In this document: piece by piece, positions 27,405 through 59,431 of the stretch
Layout of the letters: each line of letters starts with the position of its first letter
Position numbering within the stretch: position 1 is the first letter of the stretch
Virus record (IMG/VR): IMGVR_UViG_3300003323_000328
Span: 27,913 to 91,912 of that record
Length of the DNA stretch: 64,000 nucleotides
Strand: one strand, 5' to 3'
Source: a virus
The notes under the pieces: model-generated
What the model was told of the DNA's origin: nothing
Databases searched by the model: none
What the model saw: the letters and a program-made list of their open reading frames with translations, nothing else
Program-made: the position numbers and the translations under genes

Positions 27405-30400
27405 TGGGAAAACAAACTAAAAAAGATTCTTCACTGTTTTCTGATTATTCATTTGATGACCCTGTAGTAAAACCTACAGGGTTTTCTGATTTTGTACAGG
27501 AACCATTAACTAAAGAAGAAGGTAGAAGTTTATTCAGACAAGCTGGATTTCAAGGAGATAGTCAATATGATAAAGGCTTAGTTTTTGGAAGTAATCAACA
27601 AAAACAAAGAGCACTTAATCAACCATGGTATGATCAATTAGGTAATCAAGCCACTAAAATTGTTCCCGGTATTGCTTTAGGATTAATAGAAAATGCTGGA
27701 TATATAGGAGAATTATTTGATGATACGAATGATTATAGAAATGCTTTTACAGATTTTGCTACTAGAAATAGACAAAATATGGAAGAAGCACTTCCTACTT
27801 ATAGAGAAAATCCAAATCAGGTTTTCGATTTAAAAGACCCTGCATGGTGGATGCAACATGGGGAAGGTTTAGTAGAATCCATAGGAGAATTTTTTGTAAC
27901 TGGTGCTGGAATTGGAGGAGCTTTAGGTAAATCTGCTAAAGGTCTTACTTCTGTACTTAAAGCTGGTAGATATGGAGAAGCTTTAGGTCAGGGTATTGCT
28001 CAGTTAGGTACAGCTTCTGCATTAGCATATACTGAAGGTGCCATGTCAGGTGCTCAAGTTTATCAAGATGTTTTAAGTCAAACAGGAGATAAAAAGAAAG
28101 CTGCTGATGCAGCTAGTACAACTGTTCAACTTAATACTATTATCAATACTGGATTAAATTTAACATCTGTTGTACCATTTTTTAAAACTGTTGATAATTT
28201 AGCTAGTACTAGTAAACTAGGTTTATCAAGAAAGGCTGGTGAAAAATTAGATGATTGGTTAGGAAGATTAAATGGTATAGAAGCTAATGGTGTACCTGAA
28301 GCTTCTTTTAGAAAGTCTCTTATAGCAGAAGCTGGACAAGAAGCATTAGAGGAAGATGTAAACTTATTTGCAGAATCTGAAGGTAGGATAAAAGGAGGTA
28401 TTGAAAAAGCAACTTCAGTTGATCCTTTTACACGATTTTTAAATAAGTCCTTTACAGAAGAAGGTGCTTTAAATGCAATTTTAGGTGCAGTAGGTGGTGT
28501 TGGACAAACTTTAGGTTCAGAATTAATTCCATATAGAGATTATACAGACGCTAACGGAAAAGAAACAAAAGTAAATAATAAGACTCTTGCAACTCTTTTA
28601 GATAATAAACAAGCTAGAGATTATATAACTACTTTAAAAGAAGATATAGGTTATGTTACAACTAAACAAAAAGAACTTAATACAGCTCTAGAAGCTAATA
28701 ATAAAGAAGGAGTAGAAAAGGCTAGAGAAGATCTTTTTAATATAGCTGCTTTAAAATCTATAAGAGAAGGTATAGGTGAAGAATTTGGAGAAGATTTAAA
28801 ACAAATAGCTAATACTGATAATTCTCAAATTGGAGAAGATGGCAATACAGATGCCATGAGGAAAGGATATGCCGACTCGCCAACTGACAATGCTTATAGG
28901 GAAAGAGCTGTTAAGAAAATAGCTGATTTACATACTCTTGGAAATGAGTATCAAAATATTAGACGTATTTTTCCTGATAAGTTTGTAGCTGATGAAGTTT
29001 TTAGACAAAGAATGAATGTTTATTCTAATCAGGAATTAGTTGATAATCTTGATAAACAAACGGCTATTCTTACCTCTGAAATACTTAAAACTGCACCTAA
29101 TCCTGAAATTAGCACTGTAATAGAAAACTATGCTAATGTAAATGCTTTAAATCAAGTTATTAGTAGTCTAAAAGAAAATAATTCTAATCCTACCATTATT
29201 AAAGGATTAGAAAATTCTTTGAGTATAGAACAAAAACTACTTGATGATTCTCTACAAGCCGATCCTAGTCTTAAAGAAACTCTTGATAAAAATAAAGGAA
29301 TAGCTAATCAACTAGTGCTTTCAAGAGCACCTCTTGTTCTTTATAGAGAAGAACTTAATGCTTTAAAAGCAGATTATAGTAAACTTCTCAATAATACTAA
29401 AGAAACTAGTGATAGATTACTTAAGAAAAGAGATGAAATAGTAGATACTATTAAGGCTAATGAAGAACAGAAGACTATCAATCAAGAAAAACTTCAAGAA
29501 ACTAAAGACCTTAATACAACTAAACAAGAAAAAGTAACTAAGTTTAGAGAGCCAGCAGGCGAAGGAGTATCTATTATATCCTCTCCTGAAGGAGGTTTTG
29601 ATGTCGTAGATGATGAAGCTCAAGCAGCTTTATCTAATCATCCAACAGTTGAAGAAGCTAGAGTTGCTGCTAAACAGTTAAGTCAACCTAAAGTTAAAGA
29701 AACAATAACTCCAATCAAAGAAGTTCCTCCTGAACCTACTATAATACAAACTAAGCCAGAACCAGATTTCAGTAATCATGGAACAACTGGAAAAGAATAT
29801 AAAGAATTAACTACGACTACAGAAGAAAGTATTGAGGTAATTCCAGATAATAATACTAATAGATCATTCAAAATAGCTTATAGAGCTAAAGAGAATGATA
29901 ACTCTCCTATAAATCCTACTTATTTAGAGTTACATTCTCCTTCTATAAATACTGGTACACCTTTAGTGTTACAAGTGGCTAAAGAAACTTCTTTTTACAA
30001 AGAAGATTTATCAAATGATAAACTTCCTATTGGTATTTATATTAAAGGAGAACTAAAAGGTTATGTATCTCTTCCTAAAGAAGGAGATAAAAATCTTAAG
30101 TTAATTAGAGAATACATTATTAAAAATGGTCCAGTTAATACAACTATTTCTGATAAGGATATGGGGGTGTTAAATAAATCTCAAAATAAACTTACTACTA
30201 CACAAGCTATGCCAGTAGTTAAAGATATTGTAGTGGGAAGAGATAATAAATTTCTTAAGGGTCCTGCTAATGAATATGCTAGTGATTTATTAGTTAATAA
30301 AACCAATACTATACAAAATGGTATTACGTATGCTGTTGTAACTTCTCCTAATGGAAAAGATATGGCAATACCATTAGATACTAAGAAACTTGATAAAGAA

Positions 30401-31186
30401 ATTGTAGATTCTATTGTATTAGCTACTAGAATATTTATTAATCCTGATTCTATCTTAGACCAAGATCAAAAACTACTTGATGAATTATTTGATAAATATG
30501 AAATTGATTTAAGAACTCCTGCTGGATATGAAAGGTATTTTAAATTTTTCTTATATAATTATAGTGGATTAAAGGACCCTATTAAAGTAGCTGAGTTTAA
30601 CCAAGATAAAAAAGACAAATATTGGGTTAATTTTACTGGTAATGGTATTCAGTATATGAAATCTGGTGGAGCTGTTACTGTTAATAATCTTCTTCAAGCT
30701 AAAGAAGTTGGAAGAAATACACCACCAGAAGTTGTAGATCATTACATAGATGAATTAGGTATTCATCTTAGTCACATGCACTATAATATCGATTTAACTG
30801 ATTTACAGAATAATCAAAAAGTTTCTTTACCTATTTTATCTTATAATGAAAAGGCAGATAAATTAGAATATACAGAATATAAACAAAGTGATTATAAAAA
30901 TCATGTTAAAGCTAGTACTGAAACTAATATTATAGGTGCTGCTATTAAAGAAAATGAGTATACATATTTTATACAACCTAAGATATTTTTCAATACCGAT
31001 TTTATGGGAACAGTTGCAGAACAAAATAATGGAAAACCTTTAGATAAAAGAGAAGAAAAACCTATATTGAGTACAAAAGAAACTGGATTACCTTCTATAG
31101 CAAAAAGATTAGGAAAATCAAAAGTTGATCCAGATCAAGTAACTGATGAAGTTATAGAAGAACGTCAAAAATATTGTAATAAATGA
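27404..31186 (+). CDS. large ejection protein, partner of virion RNA polymerase
   Basis: 1260 aa; Gly/Ala-rich hydrophobic segments, EAGQEALEE motif, long coiled coils; directly upstream of RNAP. Confidence 0.7.
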   Translation: MGKQTKKDSSLFSDYSFDDPVVKPTGFSDFVQEPLTKEEGRSLFRQAGFQGDSQYDKGLVFGSNQQKQRALNQPWYDQLGNQATKIVPGIALGLIENAGYIGELFDDTNDYRNAFTDFATRNRQNMEEALPTYRENPNQVFDLKDPAWWMQHGEGLVESIGEFFVTGAGIGGALGKSAKGLTSVLKAGRYGEALGQGIAQLGTASALAYTEGAMSGAQVYQDVLSQTGDKKKAADAASTTVQLNTIINTGLNLTSVVPFFKTVDNLASTSKLGLSRKAGEKLDDWLGRLNGIEANGVPEASFRKSLIAEAGQEALEEDVNLFAESEGRIKGGIEKATSVDPFTRFLNKSFTEEGALNAILGAVGGVGQTLGSELIPYRDYTDANGKETKVNNKTLATLLDNKQARDYITTLKEDIGYVTTKQKELNTALEANNKEGVEKAREDLFNIAALKSIREGIGEEFGEDLKQIANTDNSQIGEDGNTDAMRKGYADSPTDNAYRERAVKKIADLHTLGNEYQNIRRIFPDKFVADEVFRQRMNVYSNQELVDNLDKQTAILTSEILKTAPNPEISTVIENYANVNALNQVISSLKENNSNPTIIKGLENSLSIEQKLLDDSLQADPSLKETLDKNKGIANQLVLSRAPLVLYREELNALKADYSKLLNNTKETSDRLLKKRDEIVDTIKANEEQKTINQEKLQETKDLNTTKQEKVTKFREPAGEGVSIISSPEGGFDVVDDEAQAALSNHPTVEEARVAAKQLSQPKVKETITPIKEVPPEPTIIQTKPEPDFSNHGTTGKEYKELTTTTEESIEVIPDNNTNRSFKIAYRAKENDNSPINPTYLELHSPSINTGTPLVLQVAKETSFYKEDLSNDKLPIGIYIKGELKGYVSLPKEGDKNLKLIREYIIKNGPVNTTISDKDMGVLNKSQNKLTTTQAMPVVKDIVVGRDNKFLKGPANEYASDLLVNKTNTIQNGITYAVVTSPNGKDMAIPLDTKKLDKEIVDSIVLATRIFINPDSILDQDQKLLDELFDKYEIDLRTPAGYERYFKFFLYNYSGLKDPIKVAEFNQDKKDKYWVNFTGNGIQYMKSGGAVTVNNLLQAKEVGRNTPPEVVDHYIDELGIHLSHMHYNIDLTDLQNNQKVSLPILSYNEKADKLEYTEYKQSDYKNHVKASTETNIIGAAIKENEYTYFIQPKIFFNTDFMGTVAEQNNGKPLDKREEKPILSTKETGLPSIAKRLGKSKVDPDQVTDEVIEERQKYCNK

Positions 31187-34100
31187 AGTGTCCTGTTAAG
31201 AGTACTCCTGATTGGAAAGCATTAGTAGATTTAGTTGGAGAAGATACTGCTTATGCTATTTATGTAAAAAATAATGAAGAAATTCCTGATCCTAAGGATT
31301 TTCAAAATTACATTAATTATAATCTTAGAGTAGTAACTGCTCTTAATTCTGATAAAGTTAGAGAACCTAAAAATAATAAAGAAGGTTTTCTTAACGATTT
31401 AATTAAACAAGGAGTACCTAAGGATCAACTTAATTTAGTTGAAAATTCTTTAGATAGTGTAGAAACTAAAGAGGATTTAAAGGAACAACTTATATTATCA
31501 ACAGTTTCTGGTATAGAGACAGCAGTTACTACTGATAAATCTGGTAATCCAACAAGTGTTTATAAAGATTTAAATGTTCCAGGAGGAAAAAATTATAAAG
31601 AAGTTGAGATAAGAACTCCTGATTTAATTTCTCCTATTAGAGGACATGCCGAATTTAGCACTAAAAAAGGTATTGGCTGGTTTAGAGCAGATGAAAAAGA
31701 AAATGATTCAAGTATTAGACGTGTACTAGAAGTACAATCTGATCTTTTTCAAAAAAGAAGAAAGAGTTTAAAGAACTCATTATTAAACTTGTTGAATAAT
31801 GATAATAATTGGGTAAGTTTTTTTGTTCGATCTATTATTCAAGACAGTTTTAAAAAAGGGTACAATAAAGTATTATTTCCTAGTGGTAATACTGCTAATA
31901 AAGTAGAAGGACAAGAAACTGTAGATGGATTTGTTGAAACTACAACTAAAAGGCTTAATGATATAAAAGAACGTAAATCTGCTTTTGAACAGACTTATAA
32001 AAAAGAAATAAAACAAAATGATGTTTCTACATTTACTCACAATAATGAGTATTATATGAGGAAACCGCGTAGTAAAACAAATAGTAAAATTACTTACGAG
32101 AAAAACTCAAATAATAAAACTATTAGTATTACTGCAGATCAATTCGCAAATGCTTATAAAGAATTTGTAGTAAGTCAATTTGATACTGAAATAGAAGCTT
32201 TAGAAAAGGAATTAAAAGATGTACAAGAAGGTAGAGTACCTTTTGTAGCTATTAATAAATTTTATCAAGATACTATTAAAAACACTCTAAAGAAAAGAGG
32301 GTACAATCCTACAGAAATTACAGATGAACATGCTAACACATGGTTTGAAGTAAATACAAATAATACTCCTATAGCTTTCTCTCCAAGCGAACAAACTATT
32401 GAACAGATTTACAGTGATTTAGTTATTCCGGGATTTAGTGCATATACTCAGAATGAAGCTGTTAATCATATAGCTGAACAAGTTATTATTTCTATAGATA
32501 CAACTCCTGGTATTTCATTCAATCAGGCTATTAGTAAGTTTGTAAACTATGCTGAAGATCAAATATTAACAGGAAATGAAAAGTATGAACCTATAGTAGA
32601 AAATATTGATAAATTTAGACAATTAGTTTTAGAAAGACTTAATAGAATAGGACTTTTACATAAAACTCCTATTGATGAAAATGATCAACTTACTATAGAA
32701 GGGGATGATGTATCTGATAGTTTTTATTGGGAGGATGATTGGGTATTTAAGTATAATAGTAAAATGAATGCACAAGAAACTATTAAAAAGTTTCTTACTT
32801 TTATACCTAAAACTACTTATGAGGATGGGGAGTACTACGAAGTAGAAAACTATCTTGGTACTTTATCATTTATACCTTATGATGAAGTATTTGAAGATCT
32901 TAAAGCTATTTTAGCTGATACTCCTAATAATTGGGAGGCAATGAGAACTAAGTTAGAGGATATCCAGACTACTAAACCTTGGATATTCAATCTACTCTTT
33001 CAAATGAATAACTATGAAGGAGATAGACAACAACTTATTAATCAATTTGTAACTTCCTTTTCTTCTACCTATAGTAATTTTAAAACTCTTCTTTGGGATG
33101 AAGATAATGGAACTTATGAATTTAAATTAATTGATACAGATCAAAACTCAGTTGTTAAAAATCTTTTATTTAAATGGCAAAACAATTTTTATACAGTAAA
33201 TGTAGAAGTAGGAGAAGTTATATCTGAGTTAGAAAAACTTAAGGATAATAAAGATGTAAATAGAATAAGAAAGTTTTTTACATCAATAGGTATAGATATT
33301 ACTACTCAAACTGTACAAGATTTAATTGACGGTAAAGTAGGAAATCTAACTTATGAACAACATTTTACGAGTACTGACAAAGGGCTTTTCAATCTTATCA
33401 AGAGTAGGTTGGCAGGACGAAATTCAAACGGGCTTGATCAAGAAGATGTTATTAATCCTGTTATTAACAATTCTGCCATTAGAAATCTTGCTAATACAGA
33501 GTACCTCTACAATAATACATTATACTCTAATAGTCTACGTAATGGTGAAGGTAATACTGTTTACAGTTATTCTTTTAATAAGTTTATAACTAAGCAGTTT
33601 CAAAGGCTTCAAGATAATGATTATGTTACTAAATATAGTAATATAACTTTTAATAGTCCTATTATTAGAGATGGTCAACCATTATATAAAACATGGTTAT
33701 ATGAATTGAAACACAATCCTTCGTTCAAGGATACTTTCTCTATAAGCCCTTTCGACACCGTTAAGGAGTCTGGTCGAGAAGGGACCAAACTAAGTAAAAT
33801 GACTGATATAGACTTAGAACTAACTAAGTTACAATTATTTCAGAACAAAGGTAATACTAAAAAAGGTGTAGGAAGAATAGCTAATTATTTATTTACTGTT
33901 CCTGGTAAAACTACTTCTTATATATTTACAGCTCCAGTACTAGATATTGTAGTATCTAATAAAAAATTAGGCAAAACAACTAAAGATGCTATTTATTCTA
34001 TTGCTCTAACAGAACTAAGTAGAATTAATAATTCTTTTGGAAAAGATATTACAAATACTAGATATAAGAATGGTTCTAAGTTTTTTTACTTCTTTCCAAG

Positions 34101-37100
34101 TTTAAATAAGAAAACTACTCCTGAAATATGGAATACTGATGGAACAGTTAAGCTACCTACTACAAATGTTAATGGTAAGACAGTAGAAAGTATTATTAGA
34201 GAAAAGATAGAAGCTGCTATAACCAATGATATTAATAATAAAATATCAGAATGGAATGATATAGGTTTTATAAAAGATGGTGAATTAATTTATACAGATA
34301 AGTCTTATAAACAGGGAACTAAAACTGATCCCTTTTTAGCTGCTGCTGATTATATTGTTAATAACACTTTATTTGAATTTAATTTACATCAAACTTTTAT
34401 TGGTGATCCAGCTTTATATTATAAAAAGAGTCCTGAAGATACATGGGATGAAATAGGAAAAAGACTTGCGGCTCAAATAGCTCCTGGAAAGGATTTATCT
34501 TTATTTTCTCCTACTGAAGATTTTATATCTGTTAAAGTTAAAGATAGAGAAGGAGATATAGCTTTAAATATTGCTGAGTTAAAGAAAATACTTAAAGATG
34601 AAGCTGCACCTTATGAATCTCTTAATGGTACAGATGCACAAGAATTTACTACTCTTCCAGAAGCTTTATTAGTTAAATATAGATTAGGTAATATTACTTC
34701 TGAAGTTTATAATAATATACTTAATAGAATCAAGAAAGATAAGGATAATTTAGTTCTTACAGAACAAGAATTAAATACTGTTTTACAACCTGATAAACCA
34801 GTATATGTAAGTACAGATATACTTACTGATCAGGATGTTGTTTCTTTAGAATATGTAAAATCTTCTTCTATTCCTTTATTACCTCAATTTACTAAAGGAT
34901 TAGAGCTAGATAAATTACGTAAAGCTATGGAAAAACTGGAAACTGAAAAAGGTAAACCAGTTAGACTGGCTTTTGATTCTGCTACTAAAGTAGGTGGAGT
35001 TCCCTCTATATCTATTTTTAATGAAGATGGTACAATCAAATCTGATTTAGATCTAAGTAATAATTATAAAGTTCTTACTAGAGATGGATTTAGAATACAA
35101 CAGGATGTTCCTTATGACCCTAATTATGAAGAAGTAGTTAAATCTACTCAAGCCACTAAACTTCTTTTTGACTCTATATTAGAAACTTCTGGATTTAATT
35201 ATAAAGGAAGCGATTATACAGGAAAACAATTAAAAGATGTCTGGAACAATCTTCATAAACAATTATTTGAAGGTAGTGCTGCTACATTACAAAAAGATAT
35301 TACACTTCCTGATGGTTCTTTAGATAGTCAAAAAATTCAACAAATTTTAGCAGAAGAAGCAGTTAAAAGAGAGTATACTCCTGCTGAAATTGCTTCTTTA
35401 TCTATACTTCCTGATGGCAGGTTTGAATTTCCTTTTTGGGCTTTAAATAGCAGTAAAAAATTTGAATCTATTATTACATCTCTTTATACTAATAGAGTTG
35501 TAAAACAAAAGATGCATGGAAGCTCTTATGTTCTTGTATCAGAAGAAGGAACTCAGGGTAAGTCTAAAGGTATAGTTTATACTTCCAATTATGAAGGTAA
35601 ACTTAAACCAATGAGAGTTGAAAATGGAGTTGTAAAAGGAGCACAAGTTTTAATTCCATGGAAATTTAAGGCTGATATAAATAAATTTATTACTGACGGT
35701 GTTATAGATAATACTAAAGTACCAGAAGAAGTATTAGAGCAATTTGGATTTCGTATTCCTAATCAAGGACATAATTCAATGTCTCTCATAGAAGTGGTTG
35801 GTTTTTTACCACCAGTAATGGGAGATATAGTAGTAGCATCTCGGAATTTTATTACTCAGATGGGTTCTGACTTTGACGTTGATAAACTTTATGTATACGA
35901 CTATTTTGTAAACATAGATGATAAAGTAAGTAAACAAGATAATATAAAGAATGATATTTTAGATATTCATAAAACTGTTCTTAAAAATCCTAAAGTATTT
36001 AAAAGTGCAGTTACTCCTCTAGGTAATGTTAAAGATAGTGAGTCTGCTAAATATCTTAAAAGTATTTATAAACAATCTATAGAAAATAGATTATCACCTG
36101 ATTATAAAAAAGCTAAATATCTTGAATCTATTGATGGTAAAGCAATGGTTGGTATAGAATCATTAGCTTCTACTCTAAATACAATTCTTCAAGAAAAAGA
36201 TATTTATATACAAAAACCGATTAAAGCCGATAGAAAAACAGTTTATGTAAAAGATTATATTACTTTTGGAGATGACAAAGGAAGTACTATACTATTAAAT
36301 AATCTGTCTTCTCCGCTTACTTGGAGAGGTAATAGTAAAAACTCTGTTATTTCCGCTGATCAATCTGCTGCTGTTGATAATGAAAAAGATCCAACTCTTT
36401 CTTATATTAATAGTAATCCTATAACTGCTCCTGCTAGAACTGCTTTACGTCAGCTTGGTCTTGAAGCAGATCATTTGAACTATTTTATGGCACAGGATGT
36501 AGTACGTTCTTTTACTAAACAAGTAAGAGCTAAGAGAAGCTTTTTATCTTCTTTTAGTAATAATATAGAAGAAACTATATTAGCTAATTTAATTAACGAT
36601 ACTAGAAAAGCTTATTTAAATACTCTGAGTGATTCTGATAAAGTATCTTATACAGATGATAGTTTATTAGATACTAAACTAACACAGAATCAGTTAAAAA
36701 AGAATCTTACTGAAAAAAGTTTATATATAGACTTACAAGTATTACTTCGTTTTGCTAAAGCATATAAAATTGGTAAGGACTTAAACACTATACAAAATGC
36801 TATCAATATAGAAAGTGGAGGAGTTGGTAAATCTGTTTTAGAGGTAGCTAATAAAAATAAAAGAATTAATAATCTTTCTAATATTAATTATGTAGCTAAT
36901 GTGACTACATTATTAGGAGACATGAAAGAAAGTGGATTAGTTCCTAACACATATTCTGGTTATGCAGTTACAAATAGTGTTCTTTTGGCTAATGATACTT
37001 TTAGTAAGCCCAATGATTTCTTTAAGTACGGTACTAGATCATTTAAACAAGTACTTGAAGAATTTACAGATATTACTGATAATATTCCTTCTGTAGATCA

Positions 37101-40100
37101 AACAGAAGTACTTTGGAATGGTCTTAAGAGTTTTGTTTTTGCTAATAAAATATCAGATAGAAGAAAAGACTTATTTTTAGGTAAAGAGGCTTTAGCTCAT
37201 AAAATAAAAGAATTTATTAAAACTAAAGAAGGTAGAACTAATCAATTTTTATTAAGACTTTCTTTTGATACTAAACCTAATCAACCCCAATTAATTAGCT
37301 ACAATGCGGCTAAAGAAGAATATGTAGATGAAATTAATATTTATAGAGGATTTTTAGATTTACTTGTTTCTCCTAACGAAACTACTAAACAACTTGGAAG
37401 AGATTTAGTAGATTATTTTTATCTTAATGGTGGTATACAACAAGCTAGGGAATGGGGTAAATATATACATCCTAGTTATTTAAAAGGAACTGTATATTAT
37501 AGTATTTTTAACGAAACTGATTTTGAAAATTTAGATACTATTGGATATGAAGAAGGTATTAGTAAATATACTAAACAATTTTTTCAGCATAATCCATGGT
37601 ATTTACCTACTTTAAATCTGCAATCTAATGAGTATAAAATTACTGAAGATACAATAGAATTAACTGATCCTCTTAATGTTAAAAAAGAATACCCTTTAGA
37701 ATTAAATGCTAAAGGTGAGTATCCTGTTATATTTAGTATTAAGGATAGTAAAAGTCCTAAAGGACATAAGATTTATGTTTCTATTGGTAATAATAAGTAT
37801 CAACAAATTAATGTTTTAGGAGCTACTAATTTTACTGAATATAATTGGACTGGAGAATCTATTATCCACAAAAATTATAATAAACCTACTAAAAAAGTAG
37901 CTGAGGTTAAAAATAAACCTATTAATGATACTAAAAGTGTACCAACTTTTTCTTTAGCAGAGTATACAGGAGATGTAAATAAAGTATTGAATAATATAAA
38001 AGATCCTAAGTATAAAGCTTTAGTTGATATACTAAAACAAAGAACTTATGATAATAATATAGAGTTTAATACATCTCTTCCACAGGGAGGAGAATATAGT
38101 TTAAATAATAAAACTATTTATATTAATCCTAATAAAGTAAAAAGTGTAGAAAGAACTATTCTTCATGAAGTAGTTCATGCTGCTACTATGAGAGCTTTTT
38201 ATTCTACTGATGGATTAACTGAGTCTCAAATAAATGCCGTGGAATCTTTAAGAAAAGTTAGATCATCCTTAAGGGATAAACTTATAGCTGGAGATTTTGA
38301 GGATATTGGATTAAAAGCTAGTGAATTAGAGGAATTTGAAACTTTATTTAAGGAAACTGCCAAAAGTAAAGAACAAGAAAAAAGAATGGTCGAATTAGTT
38401 CCTAAATATTATGGTTTTTATTCTGATGTAGAATTTATTAGTGAGCTATTTACAAGAGAAGAGTTTCAAAATACTCTTAATAATATTAAGTATGATAGTA
38501 ATAGATCTATATTAGATAGAATTGTTAATTTTATTACTACTATATTAAAAGAACTAGGAGTAAGTTCTAACACTGCTCTAGAAGCTTCTATTAAAGATGC
38601 AGTACTTCTTATTACCGATAAAAAAGAAAAGAAGAGTATTTTTGATCTTAGTAGATTAAATGATGTAACTGCAATGTCTCTTTCTGATTTTACTAATCAA
38701 GAATATAGAACACTGATTAATAAATTTGAAGAAAGATTAGCATTTATTGATAGCAGTATAGTTAAAGCTGTAATAGGAAATGAACCTGTTAGAGCTGAAC
38801 AATTAAGAGCTAGAAGGACTGAAGTAGAACAAGAATTTAATGAATTTAAAGATAACGCAGTTTTTGAAGGAGTTATTAAATTAGCTAACAATGATCTTAA
38901 AAATGTAGAAGAAATTCTAAAGCAACCTAGTATAAGTCATAATGATATTAATTATACAATACGTATAATTAAACAGTGGCAAGAAGCAAGTGATTTTGTT
39001 TTAGAAGAATCTGATGTTACAGATAGAAATACTCGCTATAAAGATATTAAAAAGATAGAAGCCGATGCTAGTGAGTTATATGATTTATGGATTCGAGTCG
39101 CTAGAAATAGTTTACTTTTAGCAGTTAAAGAAGAATCTGGACTTCAAAATCTTACACAAGAAGTATTAACTGCACAAAGTAAGATTAATACTCTTACTGC
39201 TAACTTAATGGATATATCTAGAACTGGTAATATTATATTATCAGTTATGGATAAATGGATGAGAGAATCAAGTAAAAGAGCTTCTCTAGAAGCAAATGCT
39301 ATTCATGAAGAAACTGCTAAACTTGTAGAAGGTATTAAAAATACTGATTTATTTAAAAAAGAAGGATATTATCTTTTTGCACAAAGAGACAATGAAGATA
39401 ATTTAACAGGTGAATTAGTTCGTCCTTTAAATGTAGAGTACTATAAAAATAGAAATCTGCTTCTAGAGAAAGCATCAAGGGAGGATAATAAAGAACTGAG
39501 AAGTATTTACTGGAAAGACTATTTCAATTGGATGAGAGAAAACCATACTTTCTTTGATATAAGAAAATTATACAAAGAAAATAATGATGGTACTTATACT
39601 TATAGTCCTGATACTGAATATGTAGATACTCTAAAGAAACAATTTAAAGAAAAGTTTAATAACCTGATAGAAGAACAAAAAAAGAAGATTGAGTTATATA
39701 ATGAAAAGTTAGGTTACAAAATACAATCTGTAGAAGGTGATCCTGAGGCTAATAGAGAAATAGAAAAGTGGAAAGCAGCTAATGATCCTACTATTTATTT
39801 AAGAAATGTTGTTAGTGGAGATTATAAGCAATCTATTATTGATGGAATATTTGTAAAAAATGAAGGACAGGAATATGTTGTAAAAAGAGCTAATAAAACT
39901 TGGGAAGATATTAGATATAACAAAATTCAAAATCAGCCAGAACTAAAAGCTTTTTACGATTATACAGTTCAAACTCTAAATAGACTTTACTCATTTATAC
40001 CGACTGGATTTAAAGAAGGTATAACAAATGCTACTATTCCTTCTATAAAGAAAAATCTTATAGAAGAATATAATGAGAAAGGAATGAATGCTGCTGTAAC

Positions 40101-41970
40101 TAAAACTAACAATAATTTTATAGAGGGTATTTCAGTTTTAGATACAGAATCTATAACTAATAAATTACAAGATCCTATTACAGGTAAACCTCTTTTAAAT
40201 CTTAATGTTAGATATTTAAATTCTTTAAGTCCTGAAGAAAGAACTTATGACTTAGAAAAAGTACTTAATACTTTTGCTACGGAAGCATTAAACTTTAAAC
40301 ATAAGTCTACAGTTGAAGATAGTATTAGACTAGCTCAATCTATTCTGGAACAAAGTCTTGAAGTTGTTAAATCTCCTAGAGGAGATGCAATGATTAATAG
40401 ATTTGGTGAAGTTATTAAAGTTAAGGATGGAAAAGCTCTCCAAGAACAAATGGAGTATGCTATTGAAGCTTTTTACGGACAACGTAAAGTTACTCAAGGT
40501 ATAACAAGTAAAAAAGTTTATACTAACAAAGCTAAGACTAAAGTAGATAAACTTAATAAAGAAATAGAATCTAAAGAGAAATATAGTACTGAAACTAAAG
40601 AGTTTATAAATGAATTAAAAGTTAAATATCCTCATTTAGTAACTCAAGATTTAGATGCTATACCTCTAAAAGAAGCTGCTAATAAATATTTAAAAGATAA
40701 TACAAGATTTATAGCAGGAAGTAAATTAGGAGATTCTTTATTGCAGTATATGCAATTAAAAGGTATGGGTTGGAATATATTTAGTTCTATTACTAACGTT
40801 GTTTTCGGTTGGATGTCTAATCTAACCTATGCTTCTGGTGGAGTTGATTTTACAGTAGATCAAATGCTTAAAGCTAATAGAATTATGCTTGGAGCCACTG
40901 GTAGAGCATTTGGTGTAAGTAATCCAATTGGAAGAAAAGTTAATAGATTAATGGATAAGTATAATGTTCTAGGAGAACTTAATGATGCAAGTTATAATGG
41001 AGTAACTAATTTTAAGAGAGTTAAAAAAGGTATTGAAAATTTATCACCCTATGAATTACAAAGAAAAGGTGAGTATTTTGTTCAAGGTATGACTATGGTA
41101 GCTACTATGCTTAATACTAAAGTAATGGTTAATGGTGTAGAAACTACTTTATGGAATGCTTATGATAATGATGGAAATTTCTTAGGAGATAATAAGAGTG
41201 ATTGGGAAGGCGATCTTAATAATAAAGCACATAATAAAGAATATTTTAAATTTTCTAACAAAGTCGATCAAATTAATAAAACTATTCATGGTAATTATGA
41301 TGTTAATTCACCTGTAAGAATTAAAAAAGGTGTTTTAGGTAGAGCACTTTTACAATTTAGATCATGGATTGCCGAAGGAGTTGCTTCAAGATTAGAAAAT
41401 GAAAAATATGATTTACTTTTAGGTAGAAAAAGAAAAGGTAGATGGAGAACTTATAGTGATCTAGGTTTTAAAGAAAGTCTTAGAGGTTTATTACGTATAG
41501 CTAGAGGTAAGAAACTAGATAATTTACGTAGTGATATCGATGCTACTATTGCTACTGAAAATATGAAAAGAAACTTAGCTGAAATCTATCAGTATAGTAT
41601 TCTTCTTGCTCTAGCTTATACTCTTATGGGCTTAGATTTAGACGATGATGATGAATATGGTAAAAAAGCTGTTAATCTTACTGTTAACCAGTTGCTTAGA
41701 TTACAAGATGATATAGAATTTTATTATAGTCCATTAGCTATAGAAAATATAGCTCAAAATGCATTACCTGTATTTACTTTAGTAAGAGATGGTGCTAGAT
41801 TTTTAGATGCTATTGAGAAAGGATTTATTGAGGGAGAATGGGATTATAAAACAGGTAAAAAAGCTGGTGAAAGTAGAATACTATGGACAGGAGCTAAAGT
41901 ATTTCCTTTTGGTAGTAGTATGGCTTCATTTATCAACAAAACAGAAAACGAAGAAAGTTTTAGAAACTAG
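31183..41970 (+). CDS. virion-packaged double-barrel RNA polymerase polyprotein with zincin-like domain
   Basis: catalytic MGSDFDVDK (35869-35883) preceded by GFRIPNQG; TDAQEF; HEVVH at 38164; 3595 aa. Confidence 0.9.
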   Translation: MKCPVKSTPDWKALVDLVGEDTAYAIYVKNNEEIPDPKDFQNYINYNLRVVTALNSDKVREPKNNKEGFLNDLIKQGVPKDQLNLVENSLDSVETKEDLKEQLILSTVSGIETAVTTDKSGNPTSVYKDLNVPGGKNYKEVEIRTPDLISPIRGHAEFSTKKGIGWFRADEKENDSSIRRVLEVQSDLFQKRRKSLKNSLLNLLNNDNNWVSFFVRSIIQDSFKKGYNKVLFPSGNTANKVEGQETVDGFVETTTKRLNDIKERKSAFEQTYKKEIKQNDVSTFTHNNEYYMRKPRSKTNSKITYEKNSNNKTISITADQFANAYKEFVVSQFDTEIEALEKELKDVQEGRVPFVAINKFYQDTIKNTLKKRGYNPTEITDEHANTWFEVNTNNTPIAFSPSEQTIEQIYSDLVIPGFSAYTQNEAVNHIAEQVIISIDTTPGISFNQAISKFVNYAEDQILTGNEKYEPIVENIDKFRQLVLERLNRIGLLHKTPIDENDQLTIEGDDVSDSFYWEDDWVFKYNSKMNAQETIKKFLTFIPKTTYEDGEYYEVENYLGTLSFIPYDEVFEDLKAILADTPNNWEAMRTKLEDIQTTKPWIFNLLFQMNNYEGDRQQLINQFVTSFSSTYSNFKTLLWDEDNGTYEFKLIDTDQNSVVKNLLFKWQNNFYTVNVEVGEVISELEKLKDNKDVNRIRKFFTSIGIDITTQTVQDLIDGKVGNLTYEQHFTSTDKGLFNLIKSRLAGRNSNGLDQEDVINPVINNSAIRNLANTEYLYNNTLYSNSLRNGEGNTVYSYSFNKFITKQFQRLQDNDYVTKYSNITFNSPIIRDGQPLYKTWLYELKHNPSFKDTFSISPFDTVKESGREGTKLSKMTDIDLELTKLQLFQNKGNTKKGVGRIANYLFTVPGKTTSYIFTAPVLDIVVSNKKLGKTTKDAIYSIALTELSRINNSFGKDITNTRYKNGSKFFYFFPSLNKKTTPEIWNTDGTVKLPTTNVNGKTVESIIREKIEAAITNDINNKISEWNDIGFIKDGELIYTDKSYKQGTKTDPFLAAADYIVNNTLFEFNLHQTFIGDPALYYKKSPEDTWDEIGKRLAAQIAPGKDLSLFSPTEDFISVKVKDREGDIALNIAELKKILKDEAAPYESLNGTDAQEFTTLPEALLVKYRLGNITSEVYNNILNRIKKDKDNLVLTEQELNTVLQPDKPVYVSTDILTDQDVVSLEYVKSSSIPLLPQFTKGLELDKLRKAMEKLETEKGKPVRLAFDSATKVGGVPSISIFNEDGTIKSDLDLSNNYKVLTRDGFRIQQDVPYDPNYEEVVKSTQATKLLFDSILETSGFNYKGSDYTGKQLKDVWNNLHKQLFEGSAATLQKDITLPDGSLDSQKIQQILAEEAVKREYTPAEIASLSILPDGRFEFPFWALNSSKKFESIITSLYTNRVVKQKMHGSSYVLVSEEGTQGKSKGIVYTSNYEGKLKPMRVENGVVKGAQVLIPWKFKADINKFITDGVIDNTKVPEEVLEQFGFRIPNQGHNSMSLIEVVGFLPPVMGDIVVASRNFITQMGSDFDVDKLYVYDYFVNIDDKVSKQDNIKNDILDIHKTVLKNPKVFKSAVTPLGNVKDSESAKYLKSIYKQSIENRLSPDYKKAKYLESIDGKAMVGIESLASTLNTILQEKDIYIQKPIKADRKTVYVKDYITFGDDKGSTILLNNLSSPLTWRGNSKNSVISADQSAAVDNEKDPTLSYINSNPITAPARTALRQLGLEADHLNYFMAQDVVRSFTKQVRAKRSFLSSFSNNIEETILANLINDTRKAYLNTLSDSDKVSYTDDSLLDTKLTQNQLKKNLTEKSLYIDLQVLLRFAKAYKIGKDLNTIQNAINIESGGVGKSVLEVANKNKRINNLSNINYVANVTTLLGDMKESGLVPNTYSGYAVTNSVLLANDTFSKPNDFFKYGTRSFKQVLEEFTDITDNIPSVDQTEVLWNGLKSFVFANKISDRRKDLFLGKEALAHKIKEFIKTKEGRTNQFLLRLSFDTKPNQPQLISYNAAKEEYVDEINIYRGFLDLLVSPNETTKQLGRDLVDYFYLNGGIQQAREWGKYIHPSYLKGTVYYSIFNETDFENLDTIGYEEGISKYTKQFFQHNPWYLPTLNLQSNEYKITEDTIELTDPLNVKKEYPLELNAKGEYPVIFSIKDSKSPKGHKIYVSIGNNKYQQINVLGATNFTEYNWTGESIIHKNYNKPTKKVAEVKNKPINDTKSVPTFSLAEYTGDVNKVLNNIKDPKYKALVDILKQRTYDNNIEFNTSLPQGGEYSLNNKTIYINPNKVKSVERTILHEVVHAATMRAFYSTDGLTESQINAVESLRKVRSSLRDKLIAGDFEDIGLKASELEEFETLFKETAKSKEQEKRMVELVPKYYGFYSDVEFISELFTREEFQNTLNNIKYDSNRSILDRIVNFITTILKELGVSSNTALEASIKDAVLLITDKKEKKSIFDLSRLNDVTAMSLSDFTNQEYRTLINKFEERLAFIDSSIVKAVIGNEPVRAEQLRARRTEVEQEFNEFKDNAVFEGVIKLANNDLKNVEEILKQPSISHNDINYTIRIIKQWQEASDFVLEESDVTDRNTRYKDIKKIEADASELYDLWIRVARNSLLLAVKEESGLQNLTQEVLTAQSKINTLTANLMDISRTGNIILSVMDKWMRESSKRASLEANAIHEETAKLVEGIKNTDLFKKEGYYLFAQRDNEDNLTGELVRPLNVEYYKNRNLLLEKASREDNKELRSIYWKDYFNWMRENHTFFDIRKLYKENNDGTYTYSPDTEYVDTLKKQFKEKFNNLIEEQKKKIELYNEKLGYKIQSVEGDPEANREIEKWKAANDPTIYLRNVVSGDYKQSIIDGIFVKNEGQEYVVKRANKTWEDIRYNKIQNQPELKAFYDYTVQTLNRLYSFIPTGFKEGITNATIPSIKKNLIEEYNEKGMNAAVTKTNNNFIEGISVLDTESITNKLQDPITGKPLLNLNVRYLNSLSPEERTYDLEKVLNTFATEALNFKHKSTVEDSIRLAQSILEQSLEVVKSPRGDAMINRFGEVIKVKDGKALQEQMEYAIEAFYGQRKVTQGITSKKVYTNKAKTKVDKLNKEIESKEKYSTETKEFINELKVKYPHLVTQDLDAIPLKEAANKYLKDNTRFIAGSKLGDSLLQYMQLKGMGWNIFSSITNVVFGWMSNLTYASGGVDFTVDQMLKANRIMLGATGRAFGVSNPIGRKVNRLMDKYNVLGELNDASYNGVTNFKRVKKGIENLSPYELQRKGEYFVQGMTMVATMLNTKVMVNGVETTLWNAYDNDGNFLGDNKSDWEGDLNNKAHNKEYFKFSNKVDQINKTIHGNYDVNSPVRIKKGVLGRALLQFRSWIAEGVASRLENEKYDLLLGRKRKGRWRTYSDLGFKESLRGLLRIARGKKLDNLRSDIDATIATENMKRNLAEIYQYSILLALAYTLMGLDLDDDDEYGKKAVNLTVNQLLRLQDDIEFYYSPLAIENIAQNALPVFTLVRDGARFLDAIEKGFIEGEWDYKTGKKAGESRILWTGAKVFPFGSSMASFINKTENEESFRN

Positions 41971-57334: not shown

Positions 57335-57426
57335 TAAAAGATCATTATTGTTGCTACTATTACTATTACAAAAAGCACTATAACTCCAATAGGAGTTAAG
57401 TTACCAATTAATTTCTTTTCTTCCAT
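57334..57426 (-). CDS. 30-aa single-TM microprotein (not in ORF track)
   Basis: MEEKKLIGNLTPIGVIVLFVIVIVATIMIF*; starts inside the ung 3' end; its TAA overlaps the next ATG (TAATG). Confidence 0.65.
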   Translation of the reverse strand: MEEKKLIGNLTPIGVIVLFVIVIVATIMIF

Positions 57427-57943
57427 GTTGTTTTAAAAAATTGTTTGTTTTACTAAAATATTTACCACCACTAAAAGTTTTAGGATAATCAGGAATTACC
57501 ATACCGAATTGATCTCTATTATAAAGATCAGCAGCAGGATGTTTACCTTTTAAAACTAAATGATTATTAGTCTCAACTTTAGTTTTATTATAAACAGTTA
57601 CTACATCATTAAAAAGACTTTGAGATTCATTACCCCATAATATAAATACTTTAGGTAAATGATCATCCCACAACTCATATACGATTTTTTTAACTATACG
57701 TTCCCAACCTATTATTTCTTTATGTGAATTAGGTTTGCCTTTGCGTACAGTTAAACAACTATTTAATAGTAATACTCCTTGTTTAGCCCAATGTTCAAGA
57801 CTAAAATCATAATCTAATTTTAGTCCATTATAAAGATCATTTTCAACTTCTTTATATATAATATCTAAAGATTTACCATAAGGTTTAGTAGCTCCATTGA
57901 GGTAACCAAAAGCTAGTCCATTAGCAGTACCGTCATTATAAGG
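57401..57943 (-). CDS. ung: uracil-DNA glycosylase, exon 2
   Basis: PYN...ANGLAF, LEHWAKQGVLLLNSCLTV, SH...GWE, FILWG, HP, F...N..L...I.W family-1 UNG motifs. Confidence 0.92.
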   Translation of the reverse strand, partial: PYNDGTANGLAFGYLNGATKPYGKSLDIIYKEVENDLYNGLKLDYDFSLEHWAKQGVLLLNSCLTVRKGKPNSHKEIIGWERIVKKIVYELWDDHLPKVFILWGNESQSLFNDVVTVYNKTKVETNNHLVLKGKHPAADLYNRDQFGMVIPDYPKTFSGGKYFSKTNNFLKQHGRKEINW

Positions 57944-58819
57944 CAATTTTGTTATCGTATAAATTCTTTATTTTATACTTCTAATACTTTATCATCGTAT
58001 TAGTTCAGACTATATCATCACTTATATTAAGTGTTGGACGCTCGTGTTGAGTTTATTGCTTCGCTTGCTCACTCATTAGTCGTTGAACGTTCATGGTACT
58101 TTTCCAGCGTTCCCATGCTTCGCTGCTGATTGCCCTTAATTCCAGATGGGTTTCCAGCAATTCATCCAATTTATACAGGACTCCTTCATAGATAAAAATC
58201 ATATTTTTATACACAAAAGACTTCATATAATTTCCTCTAGCTGCTGCAGCTAAACTGATAGCACTTAAATTAAGTGTTTGTGCAGCATCTTTAGCAGAAA
58301 TATATTTTTTAATAAACTTACCAGAAATAGAAAATTGATATACAGTCTTATTTAATCTTTCGGCAGTCATTTGAGTTGTTTTAATTTTTTCAAGCATTGT
58401 TGCTCTATAGATAGGGTCTTTCCATTTTTCTTTTCTAATTGCACTCATCTTATCTTTGAAATCTTGAGTACTAGAACTACCTTCTCTAATAGCTCCAAAT
58501 TGATTAACTATTTTAAAACTATTATCAAGTTTATAAATATTTATCCAATGTTGCTCTCTTTCTATATAATTATCACAAACTTCAATAACTTCAAAAGTTA
58601 TATAATCTCCATTAATAAAAGCATCAATAATTGATTTACACCCTTTACCTATTAAATTATTTTTAATATTATAAAGATGTACTGCCTTTCTTTTACTTAG
58701 GTTATTAGTAGAACCTATATAAATAAGACGTTGATTATGTGCTTTTAGAGCGTATACTCCGGGTAAATTTGGAACTTTCATGTCCAAAAATAATTAATTT
58801 AACCAAAAATAAAAATTTA
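57944..58819 (-). mobile_element. group I self-splicing intron (IA-like) in ung, 876 nt
   Basis: 5' exon ends in U; intron ends in G; IGS GUCCUGU pairs with exon ACAGGAU giving the U.G; P AAUUGCUGGAAA, Q AAUCAGCAG, R GUUCAACGACUA, S GAUAUAGUC; P3, P7 and P8 pair; splicing restores GQD-PY. Confidence 0.93.
58053..58781 (-). CDS. intron-encoded GIY-YIG homing endonuclease
   Basis: PGVYAL...IYIGST, EREQHWI, NUMOD1-like VYQFSISGKFIKKYISAKDAA; ATG 58781 (TTG 58787 alternative). Confidence 0.88.
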   Translation of the reverse strand: MKVPNLPGVYALKAHNQRLIYIGSTNNLSKRKAVHLYNIKNNLIGKGCKSIIDAFINGDYITFEVIEVCDNYIEREQHWINIYKLDNSFKIVNQFGAIREGSSSTQDFKDKMSAIRKEKWKDPIYRATMLEKIKTTQMTAERLNKTVYQFSISGKFIKKYISAKDAAQTLNLSAISLAAAARGNYMKSFVYKNMIFIYEGVLYKLDELLETHLELRAISSEAWERWKSTMNVQRLMSEQAKQ

Positions 58820-59431
58820 ATCCTGTCCAATTATTACTACTTTAGTATGATCAAAAGTACAAAGTTTTAATGCTCTAAATACTCTTTCAGGAGAAGGATA
58901 GATAGTATAAACTTTTCTTTCAGCTTGTACTCTAGCCCTTATACCTTTCATTAAATCACTTGTAAAAACTTTTTCTAGTAGCTCATACCAATTAGTACCA
59001 ACTTTATTCATCCAAGTAAATCCATCTGGATTAATAGATCGCATTCCTTTATGACGTCTATCCCAATGGTATAAAGGAACATATACTTTTAGTTCAGTTG
59101 TATCCTCAAAATGAAAGAATTGTCCAAACTCTAAAGCTCTTTGTTTAGTGATTACATAATCATGAGTTCTAGTCTCATAATGTATATCATCTACATTTTG
59201 TAAGATAGTGTAATTAATACTCCAAGCATTAGTTTTTCTGAATATATTCTTTTCATCTTCAAACTTAGTATATAAAATATTATTTTGACCCAAAAGTATA
59301 TGCCCAATACACCTAATCTCCCCATCAATATCAATAAAAACTCTACCACCTTCTTCTGGCTTATATATAATCTGTCTGCCATTTTTATCGGTATAATTAA
59401 GAAGCTTTTGTAACTTTTCCTCTACGCTCAT
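58820..59431 (-). CDS. ung: uracil-DNA glycosylase exon 1, fused to an unknown ~125-aa N-terminal domain
   Basis: W..LL...F, IYPSPERVFRAL, TKVVIIGQD ending exactly at the splice site; spliced product 384 aa. Confidence 0.9.

Follow-up and report, generated by a model that had tools for sequence, protein, structure and literature searches.

A group I intron carrying a GIY-YIG endonuclease frame at the catalytic motif of a uracil-DNA glycosylase gene in a crAss-like phage

Results and Discussion

The 64,000-nucleotide stretch of DNA analysed here (the window; positions 27,913 to 91,912 of the IMG/VR virus record IMGVR_UViG_3300003323_000328) carries on its minus strand a gene for a uracil-DNA glycosylase (UDG) that is interrupted by a group I intron at GQD/PY, the slash marking the splice junction within the water-activating motif. 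The element is a group I intron with exact boundaries, a recognizable core structure and covariation among its relatives, and it contains an open reading frame (ORF) for a homing endonuclease. Every sequence-level requirement that we tested was found to be in place, and it is very probable that the intron is mobile and competent to splice. An original prediction, made from the letters of the window, had described the split gene and its intron, and the letters and coordinates that it gave for the exons, the intron ends and the helices were all verified. The gene, the intron and the endonuclease frame are laid out as follows.

57401 to 57943, minus strand: UDG exon 2, 180 codons followed by a TAA stop codon (57403-57401), assigned by Pfam PF03167 and by alignment
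57944 to 58819, minus strand: group I intron, 876 nt long, which begins with the in-frame TAA and ends with the terminal G (omega-G), assigned by Rfam RF00028 and by exons that abut exactly
58053 to 58781, minus strand: homing endonuclease ORF, 242 codons and a stop codon, with GIY-YIG and NUMOD1 domains, in the P1 loop
58817 to 58819, minus strand: in-frame TAA, the first intron codon, which closes the exon-1 reading frame
58820 to 59431, minus strand: UDG exon 1, 204 codons, assigned from the ORF list and by alignment to uninterrupted homologs

The joined exons match a family-1 uracil-DNA glycosylase

Exon 1 ends in ...VVIIGQD (DNA end GGACAGGAT at 58820, the last base being U in the transcript) and exon 2 opens at 57943 with CCTTATAAT, encoding PYND. 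The original prediction had proposed a search for intron-less ung alleles, and our search of 5.8 billion proteins with exon 1 as the query returned 21 uninterrupted homologs that contain PF03167 and are 43-70% identical to exon 1. In an alignment with 10 of these 21, the two exons abut at GQD/PY in adjacent columns with a gap of 0 and an overlap of 0, which bears out both predicted splice sites and the restored GQDPY motif. The joined exons encode 384 amino acids (aa), compared with 378-405 aa in the uninterrupted homologs, and the motifs GQDPY, GLAF, LLLN and HPAADL are in register with theirs. The junction cannot be shifted because the bases at both sites differ: exon 1 ends in T and the intron in G, and the intron begins with T and exon 2 with C.

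The Pfam search placed PF03167, the UDG superfamily, on exon 2 (E 2.8e-8) and gave no domain on exon 1, which contains an N-terminal domain of ~130 aa of no known family and the first part of the family-1 UDG fold. The uninterrupted homolog P0001 matches solved family-1 UNG structures with an E value of 1e-35. By its fold and motifs the joined product is a family-1 uracil-DNA glycosylase (UNG), for which uracil excision is predicted. Gene callers produce instead a 204-aa orphan and a truncated UDG. The broken genes expected from automated annotation are indeed found, the 204-aa exon-1 product being recorded as a stand-alone protein without a Pfam domain.

One lineage of uninterrupted homologs, represented by P0009 (L003:5001-6176), has GQSPY in place of GQDPY. 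Since the catalytic Asp is replaced by Ser, this protein may bind uracil-DNA without cutting it.

The intervening sequence is a group I intron

The search with a covariance model that had been suggested with the prediction gave a match well above the gathering score. The Rfam model Intron_gpI (RF00028), whose gathering score is 50, scored 80.1 bits (E 2e-20), spanning 58234-57981 and the full model from 1 to 253. When the whole phage genome of 91,912 bp was searched with it, the same score was obtained and this was the sole match. Together with covariation on 15 related introns, the score upholds the assignment to group I. A run of Rfam at the gathering threshold with default filters on the whole 64-kb window returned no match, despite the intron scoring 30 bits above the gathering score. 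As the same model finds it in the sub-region and in the genome, the blank run is explained by speed filters that lost the intron, and pipelines with default Rfam filters will overlook it. Since the UDG is both split and missed by a standard Rfam run, the presence or absence of UDG will be miscounted in crAss-like and other uncultured phages. The intron ends in ...AAAATTG with the terminal G at 57944; the TAA at its start has counterparts in related introns, which likewise carry TAA or TGA directly after the 5' splice site. A megablast search with the locus against deposited phages found no match.

Guide pairings and the ribozyme core

The predicted pairings of the internal guide sequence (IGS) in P1, of P10, and of P3, P7 and P8 all hold at the positions given for them. 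The elements of the ribozyme are listed below; all lie on the minus strand, the coordinates were checked, and the pair counts for the core were made on the 15 related introns.

58183 to 58186, minus strand: P10 guide AAGG, the complement of CCUU at the start of exon 2
58175 to 58181, minus strand: IGS GUCCUGU, the 3' strand of P1, which pairs with exon ACAGGAU and has a U.G pair at the splice site
57944 to 58169, minus strand: ribozyme core and 3' domain
58169-58163 and 58040-58034, minus strand: P3, TTGGATG/CGTCCAA
58159-58154 and 58129-58124, minus strand: P4
58117-58113 and 58096-58092, minus strand: P6a
58081-58077 and 58012-58008, minus strand: P7, GACTA/TAGTC
58075-58071 and 58052-58048, minus strand: P7.1
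58033-58028 and 58024-58019, minus strand: P8, CACTTA/TAAGTG
58003-57997 and 57987-57981, minus strand: P9
57978-57972 and 57963-57957, minus strand: P9.1

P1 has 7 bp and a duplex energy of -11.2 kcal/mol. GUCCUGU is the sole complement of 6-7 bp to the end of exon 1 in the intron that places a G opposite the terminal U. A 7-bp IGS somewhere in the intron arises in 13% of shuffles; the match is more than chance because GUCCUGU, 640 nt into the intron, stands 5 nt before P3, in the same place as in the related introns of FpV1 and IMG/VR. One unpaired A separates P10 from P1; with the ligated exons as its partner, the guide forms 11 bp and a single bulge (-15.2 kcal/mol).

The helices from P3 to P9.1 and the P, Q, R and S elements are all present. 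Covariation was assessed on an alignment of the 15 related introns, which were taken from Flavobacterium phage FpV1 and from IMG/VR contigs matched by core pattern. In this alignment 81.7% of the cells of the named structure were paired, compared with 30-47% when the partners were slid by 1-3 columns. Changes on both sides occurred in 34 of the 54 pairs, and none of 500 shuffles reached the observed values. P3 was 96% paired, with compensatory changes in five of its seven pairs; covariation was also seen in P5, P6/P6a, P7.1, P8, P9 and P9.1, and P4 and P7 were invariant. An unconstrained minimum free energy fold recovered P3-P6a, P8, P9 and P9.1.

The prediction had further noted extra sequence between P7 and P3' and called it IA-like. 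This is correct insofar as a 34-nt insert is present, which holds one covarying 5-bp hairpin (P7.1) and a 2-bp inner stem. P7.1 is the only full hairpin evident in the insert, where subgroup IA would have a P7.1/P7.2 pair, and the intron has no P2; 'IA-like' is therefore used here for a resemblance and not as a subgroup assignment. In most of the IMG/VR relatives the 5' splice site precedes the IGS by 8-14 nt, and the layout of IGS, UAAA and P3 is shared. As these introns have a P1 loop (L1) of only 8-14 nt in the same layout, the endonuclease ORF is an insertion in L1. Judged by layout, the intron is thus a member of a family that lacks P2 and normally has a tiny P1 hairpin, and it has a 640-nt insertion in the P1 loop.

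The endonuclease frame runs into the ribozyme core

In Pfam searches the endonuclease matched GIY-YIG (PF01541, E 6.8e-7) and NUMOD1 (PF07453, E 3.5e-6). A single-sequence phmmer search against the PDB gave no match, and a family profile was needed: it matched the catalytic domain of I-TevI (1MK0/1LN0, E 7e-6), with the GVY, YIG, R and E positions aligned. A tblastn search of deposited phages with the endonuclease was without a match, and exhaustive phmmer found 60 relatives at E <= 1e-10.

The last ~45 codons of the endonuclease (VLYKLDELLETH..AISS..NVQRL) are at the same time the IGS, P3, P4-P6 and P7. More precisely, the C-terminus (VLYKLDELLETHLELRAISSEAWERWKSTMNVQRL...) spans the P and Q elements (P4/P4'), P6 and the R element (P7), and the stop codon falls in the loop of P7.1. 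In the alignment of the closest homologs the C-terminal ~45 residues are the best conserved part of the protein, far above the catalytic domain. Strong conservation of this kind is the pattern predicted by RNA-level constraint on the C-terminus. Compared across the family, the frame shows that this layout, in which the ORF lies in L1 and extends into the core, recurs. The alignments provide a clear family-wide case in which an endonuclease frame doubles as ribozyme core, and the ~45 codons conserved across the endonuclease family constitute a tractable example of dual coding. The same stretch exemplifies a possible conflict between translation and splicing.

A conserved 'VL' in the endonuclease homologs, corresponding to the IGS GUCCUG, was tried as a mark of UDG introns and rejected, as most such introns in IMG/VR lie in a gene ending in ...LQD/TAA. 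These related introns are mostly ORF-less and are numerous on IMG/VR contigs of 85-170 kb (L020, L021, L025, L029, L030, L033, L040, L049, L054, L057, L058, L062, L064 and others); they have the IGS GUCCUG, and their host is a conserved gene other than UDG, exon 1 of which ends in ...FFLDKNG.P.S....T.DLQD/TAA. On a separate 90-kb IMG/VR contig (L015:2088-3325), a GHKL-type ATPase-like ORF ends in ...IGGFGFVTN and is followed by a 282-aa GIY-YIG ORF. The latter ends in KLDELLET...RAISSQ, a further case of an endonuclease frame that continues into a ribozyme core; this region gave no Rfam match at E <= 1e-4.

Distribution of the intron and its relatives

Among ~23 homologs of the two-domain UDG, the split form was found in that of the window only, and this sole split allele points to a recent gain of the intron. 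The UDGs were in one piece in all 60 best matches from 50,697 deposited phage genomes, those of the FpV phages included. IMG/VR searches for related loci returned none with exon 1 alone as the query, and only one relative of the N-terminal domain with an alignment as the query. When 48 IMG/VR loci with a related core were examined, one had UDG exons on both sides. This locus, L059 (IMGVR_UViG_3300009873_000002), is a 128.8-kb contig of an uncultured phage with 43% G+C, and its intron region is L059:2826-3617. A search with the flank pattern ATHATHGGNCARGAYTAAAT found L059 and four unrelated sites only.

The L059 intron lies at the same point as that of the window, IIGQD/PY, with the IGS GUCCUG and a related core. 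Its exon 1 likewise ends in ...VVIIGQD, the DNA reading GGACAGGAT/TAAATG, and the 18 exon-1 bases beside the site are identical to those in the window. An endonuclease ORF in L1 again reads into the core; it is of HNH type, whereas that of the window is GIY-YIG. The UDG of L059 is only 25-35% identical to that of the window and lacks the N-terminal extra domain. Eighteen identical bases in UDGs this distant fit co-conversion during homing. The two loci show one UDG site occupied in distant phages by introns with different endonucleases, and on this comparison the GQD/PY site is a recurrent intron target. One site in very distant UDGs with different endonuclease types should be useful for studying how endonucleases and ribozymes are assembled. 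The two introns differ at the 3' end: that of L059 ends in ...CAAATTA, with A and no terminal G, in contrast to ...AAAATTG in the window, and its exon 2 starts with a doubled CCTTAT (PYPYPN). In L059 the second splicing step may be impaired, or a sequence error may account for the difference.

Among deposited phage genomes, the intron of the Flavobacterium psychrophilum phages FpV1, FpV2, FpV20 and FpV21 (Fipvunavirus) has the closest core, 72.5% identical over 171 nt. The FpV1 intron shares the P2-less layout of IGS, UAAAA and P3 and the same P7.1 and P9.1 motifs. It reads exon GAAGGAU, an 11-nt loop, IGS GUCCUUC, UAAAA and P3, and it scored 59.3 bits with Rfam. It differs in being located upstream of the Sak4-like gp63 and not in a UDG gene, the FpV UDG being uninterrupted. 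It also has an L1 of 11 nt, and its GIY-YIG-like ORF, gp64, starts after the core and not in L1. The FpV1 intron is unannotated (L013:5624-5857; NC_031914.1, ~74.1-74.4 kb, minus strand). It comes after a small exon, likewise without annotation (MSDTKIRTICVD...HDKWKD/), and before gp64, which has the GIY-YIG-like motif at its start; the interrupted gene is probably the Sak4-like gp63.

Splicing competence and alternative explanations

Several points weigh against a functional, mobile intron. Splicing is here inferred from sequence. The intron allele is carried by one genome from one sample, which bears on its long-term maintenance. The endonuclease ORF overlaps the core by ~130 nt and could impair folding during translation. 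Finally, the A at the end of the L059 intron shows that introns of this group can have features likely to hinder the second step of splicing.

We considered whether a genuine group I intron has here lost the ability to splice, or splices too poorly, in which case the UDG would effectively be a pseudogene and only the endonuclease would be functional or selfishly kept. The overlap of the ORF with the core and the missing terminal G in L059 are compatible with such a loss, as is the GQSPY of P0009, which indicates that UDG catalysis is not kept everywhere in this protein family. On the other hand, the P, Q, R and S elements, P7, the U.G pair, the omega-G and P10 are all intact, and the Rfam score is high. 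Moreover, both exons are open and retain the residues that are conserved in homologs, and the sole stop codon is the one at the start of the intron. We therefore regard loss of splicing as improbable.

It is less probable still that the gene is 'fractured', such that two UDG pieces are translated apart and reassemble as a two-chain enzyme around a free-standing endonuclease gene, without splicing. Phage genes that are split around an endonuclease gene have been described. Here, however, the gap is filled by a complete ribozyme whose P1 and P10 are matched to these exon ends, and the cut lies inside a catalytic loop. Exon 2 has no start codon at PYND, except for a TTG within the last bases of the intron, and no separate upstream region. 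An assembly artefact that joined the intron of another phage into the UDG gene is hardly credible: the genome is a metagenome assembly and the sole run with matching DNA may be its own source, but the IGS and the P10 guide are complementary to the exon ends of this very gene, the G+C content of the intron (0.29) matches that of the exons (0.28-0.30), and the exon-1 protein is recorded on two contigs.

Proposed mechanism of splicing and homing

For the functional, mobile intron that we favor, we propose the following sequence of events. The intron separates the Asp codon from the Pro codon of the GQDPY motif. The pre-mRNA would fold such that the guide pairs with the last seven bases of exon 1 to form P1, with the U.G pair at the cleavage site, and exogenous guanosine would attack at the 5' splice site. 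The freed 3'-OH of exon 1 would then attack after the terminal G, aided by the 4-bp P10, and the ligated product ...GGACAGGAU/CCUUAUAAU... would be translated into the 384-aa UDG. UDG activity would thus depend on splicing. The GIY-YIG/NUMOD1 endonuclease presumably cuts intron-less UDG alleles of co-infecting relatives, which would allow the intron to spread by homing.

Translation of the 3' end of the endonuclease frame and folding of the ribozyme would use the same bases. The two processes probably compete because the ORF runs through the IGS, P3, P4-P6 and P7, and ribosomes at its end would be expected to hinder folding of the core. A broader version of the proposal holds that the codon boundary G[QM]D/PY of UDG is a general and hitherto undescribed homing hotspot, entered independently by introns with different endonucleases (GIY-YIG here and HNH in L059), that endonuclease translation, by blocking the core, competes with splicing and so switches the UDG, and that the product, with its fused nuclease-like N-terminal domain, could be an enzyme that cuts uracil-DNA and not a simple repair glycosylase; taken as a whole, we consider it rather unlikely.

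Comparison with known introns

The intron in the td gene of phage T4, which encodes I-TevI, is a group I intron of subgroup IA2 (reviewed in PMC3984707 and PMC3943268). Like td, the UDG intron is a group I intron in a phage gene of nucleotide or DNA metabolism, located at a conserved catalytic region. In both, an in-frame stop codon comes just past the 5' splice site, P7 and P3' are separated by an extra element, and the GIY-YIG endonuclease has a modular tail for DNA binding. They differ in that the host gene here is a UDG, P2 is absent and only one hairpin is evident at the P7.1/P7.2 position. In addition, the ORF is in the P1 loop and not in P6a, and it reads ~130 nt into the core. The kind of element is a textbook one, a group I intron of a phage that encodes a GIY-YIG endonuclease and interrupts a catalytic motif, and UDG can be added to the phage genes in which such a motif is used for homing.

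UDG as the host gene is apparently undescribed in the literature that we searched. The original prediction had listed ung as a gene not known to be an intron host, and our literature search, which was not exhaustive, likewise found no paper on a UDG or ung intron; the site itself is not unique, as the L059 intron occupies the same codon boundary. Neither uracil nor glycosylase is mentioned in a review of bacterial and phage group I introns (PMC3984707) or in a 2025 intron database paper (PMC11835236). For the Delta and Zeta groups of crAss-like phages, Yutin et al. (2021, PMC7886860) described core genes with introns that contain endonuclease domains. In the text supplements of that study, a word search linked UDG to no intron. 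The phage in the window belongs to the same phage group and differs in that its genome has a single intron.

The N-terminal domain of the UDG and the host phage

The first ~130 aa of the UDG (59431-59040, minus strand) form a conserved extra domain. Pfam gave no significant match to it (only a sub-threshold DUF4367, E 0.066), no PHROG was found, all Atlas rows were sub-threshold, and Foldseek returned no match at E <= 0.001. An AF2 model of the domain (pLDDT 80.7) best fits PD-(D/E)XK nuclease folds, with D212 first (Z 6.5) and then NhoI, Hjc, PvuII, NaeI and DpnI, all of them weak matches. Residues D81, E113 and K115 are fully or almost fully invariant. The domain is also found alone, in ORFs of 132-141 aa (L009:4433-4831, L006:682-1107), once beside a C5 DNA methyltransferase-like gene. 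On the basis of the model, the UDG may be fused here to a nuclease-like module.

The phage genome (91,912 bp, ~92 kb) is from a root metagenome (DNA run). The terL, portal and major capsid protein (MCP) genes in the window match PHROGs, and over 97% of its length the MCP shares 31-32% identity with those of cr3_1, crAss002 and Carjivirus. By the similarity of these hallmark proteins, the host of the intron is a crAss-like phage (Crassvirales). Genes resembling ThyX and MazG adjoin the UDG gene. A single ORF of 3595 codons (window positions 31183-41970, plus strand) follows ORFs of 1260 and 670 codons and is consistent with the giant virion proteins known from crAss-like phages.

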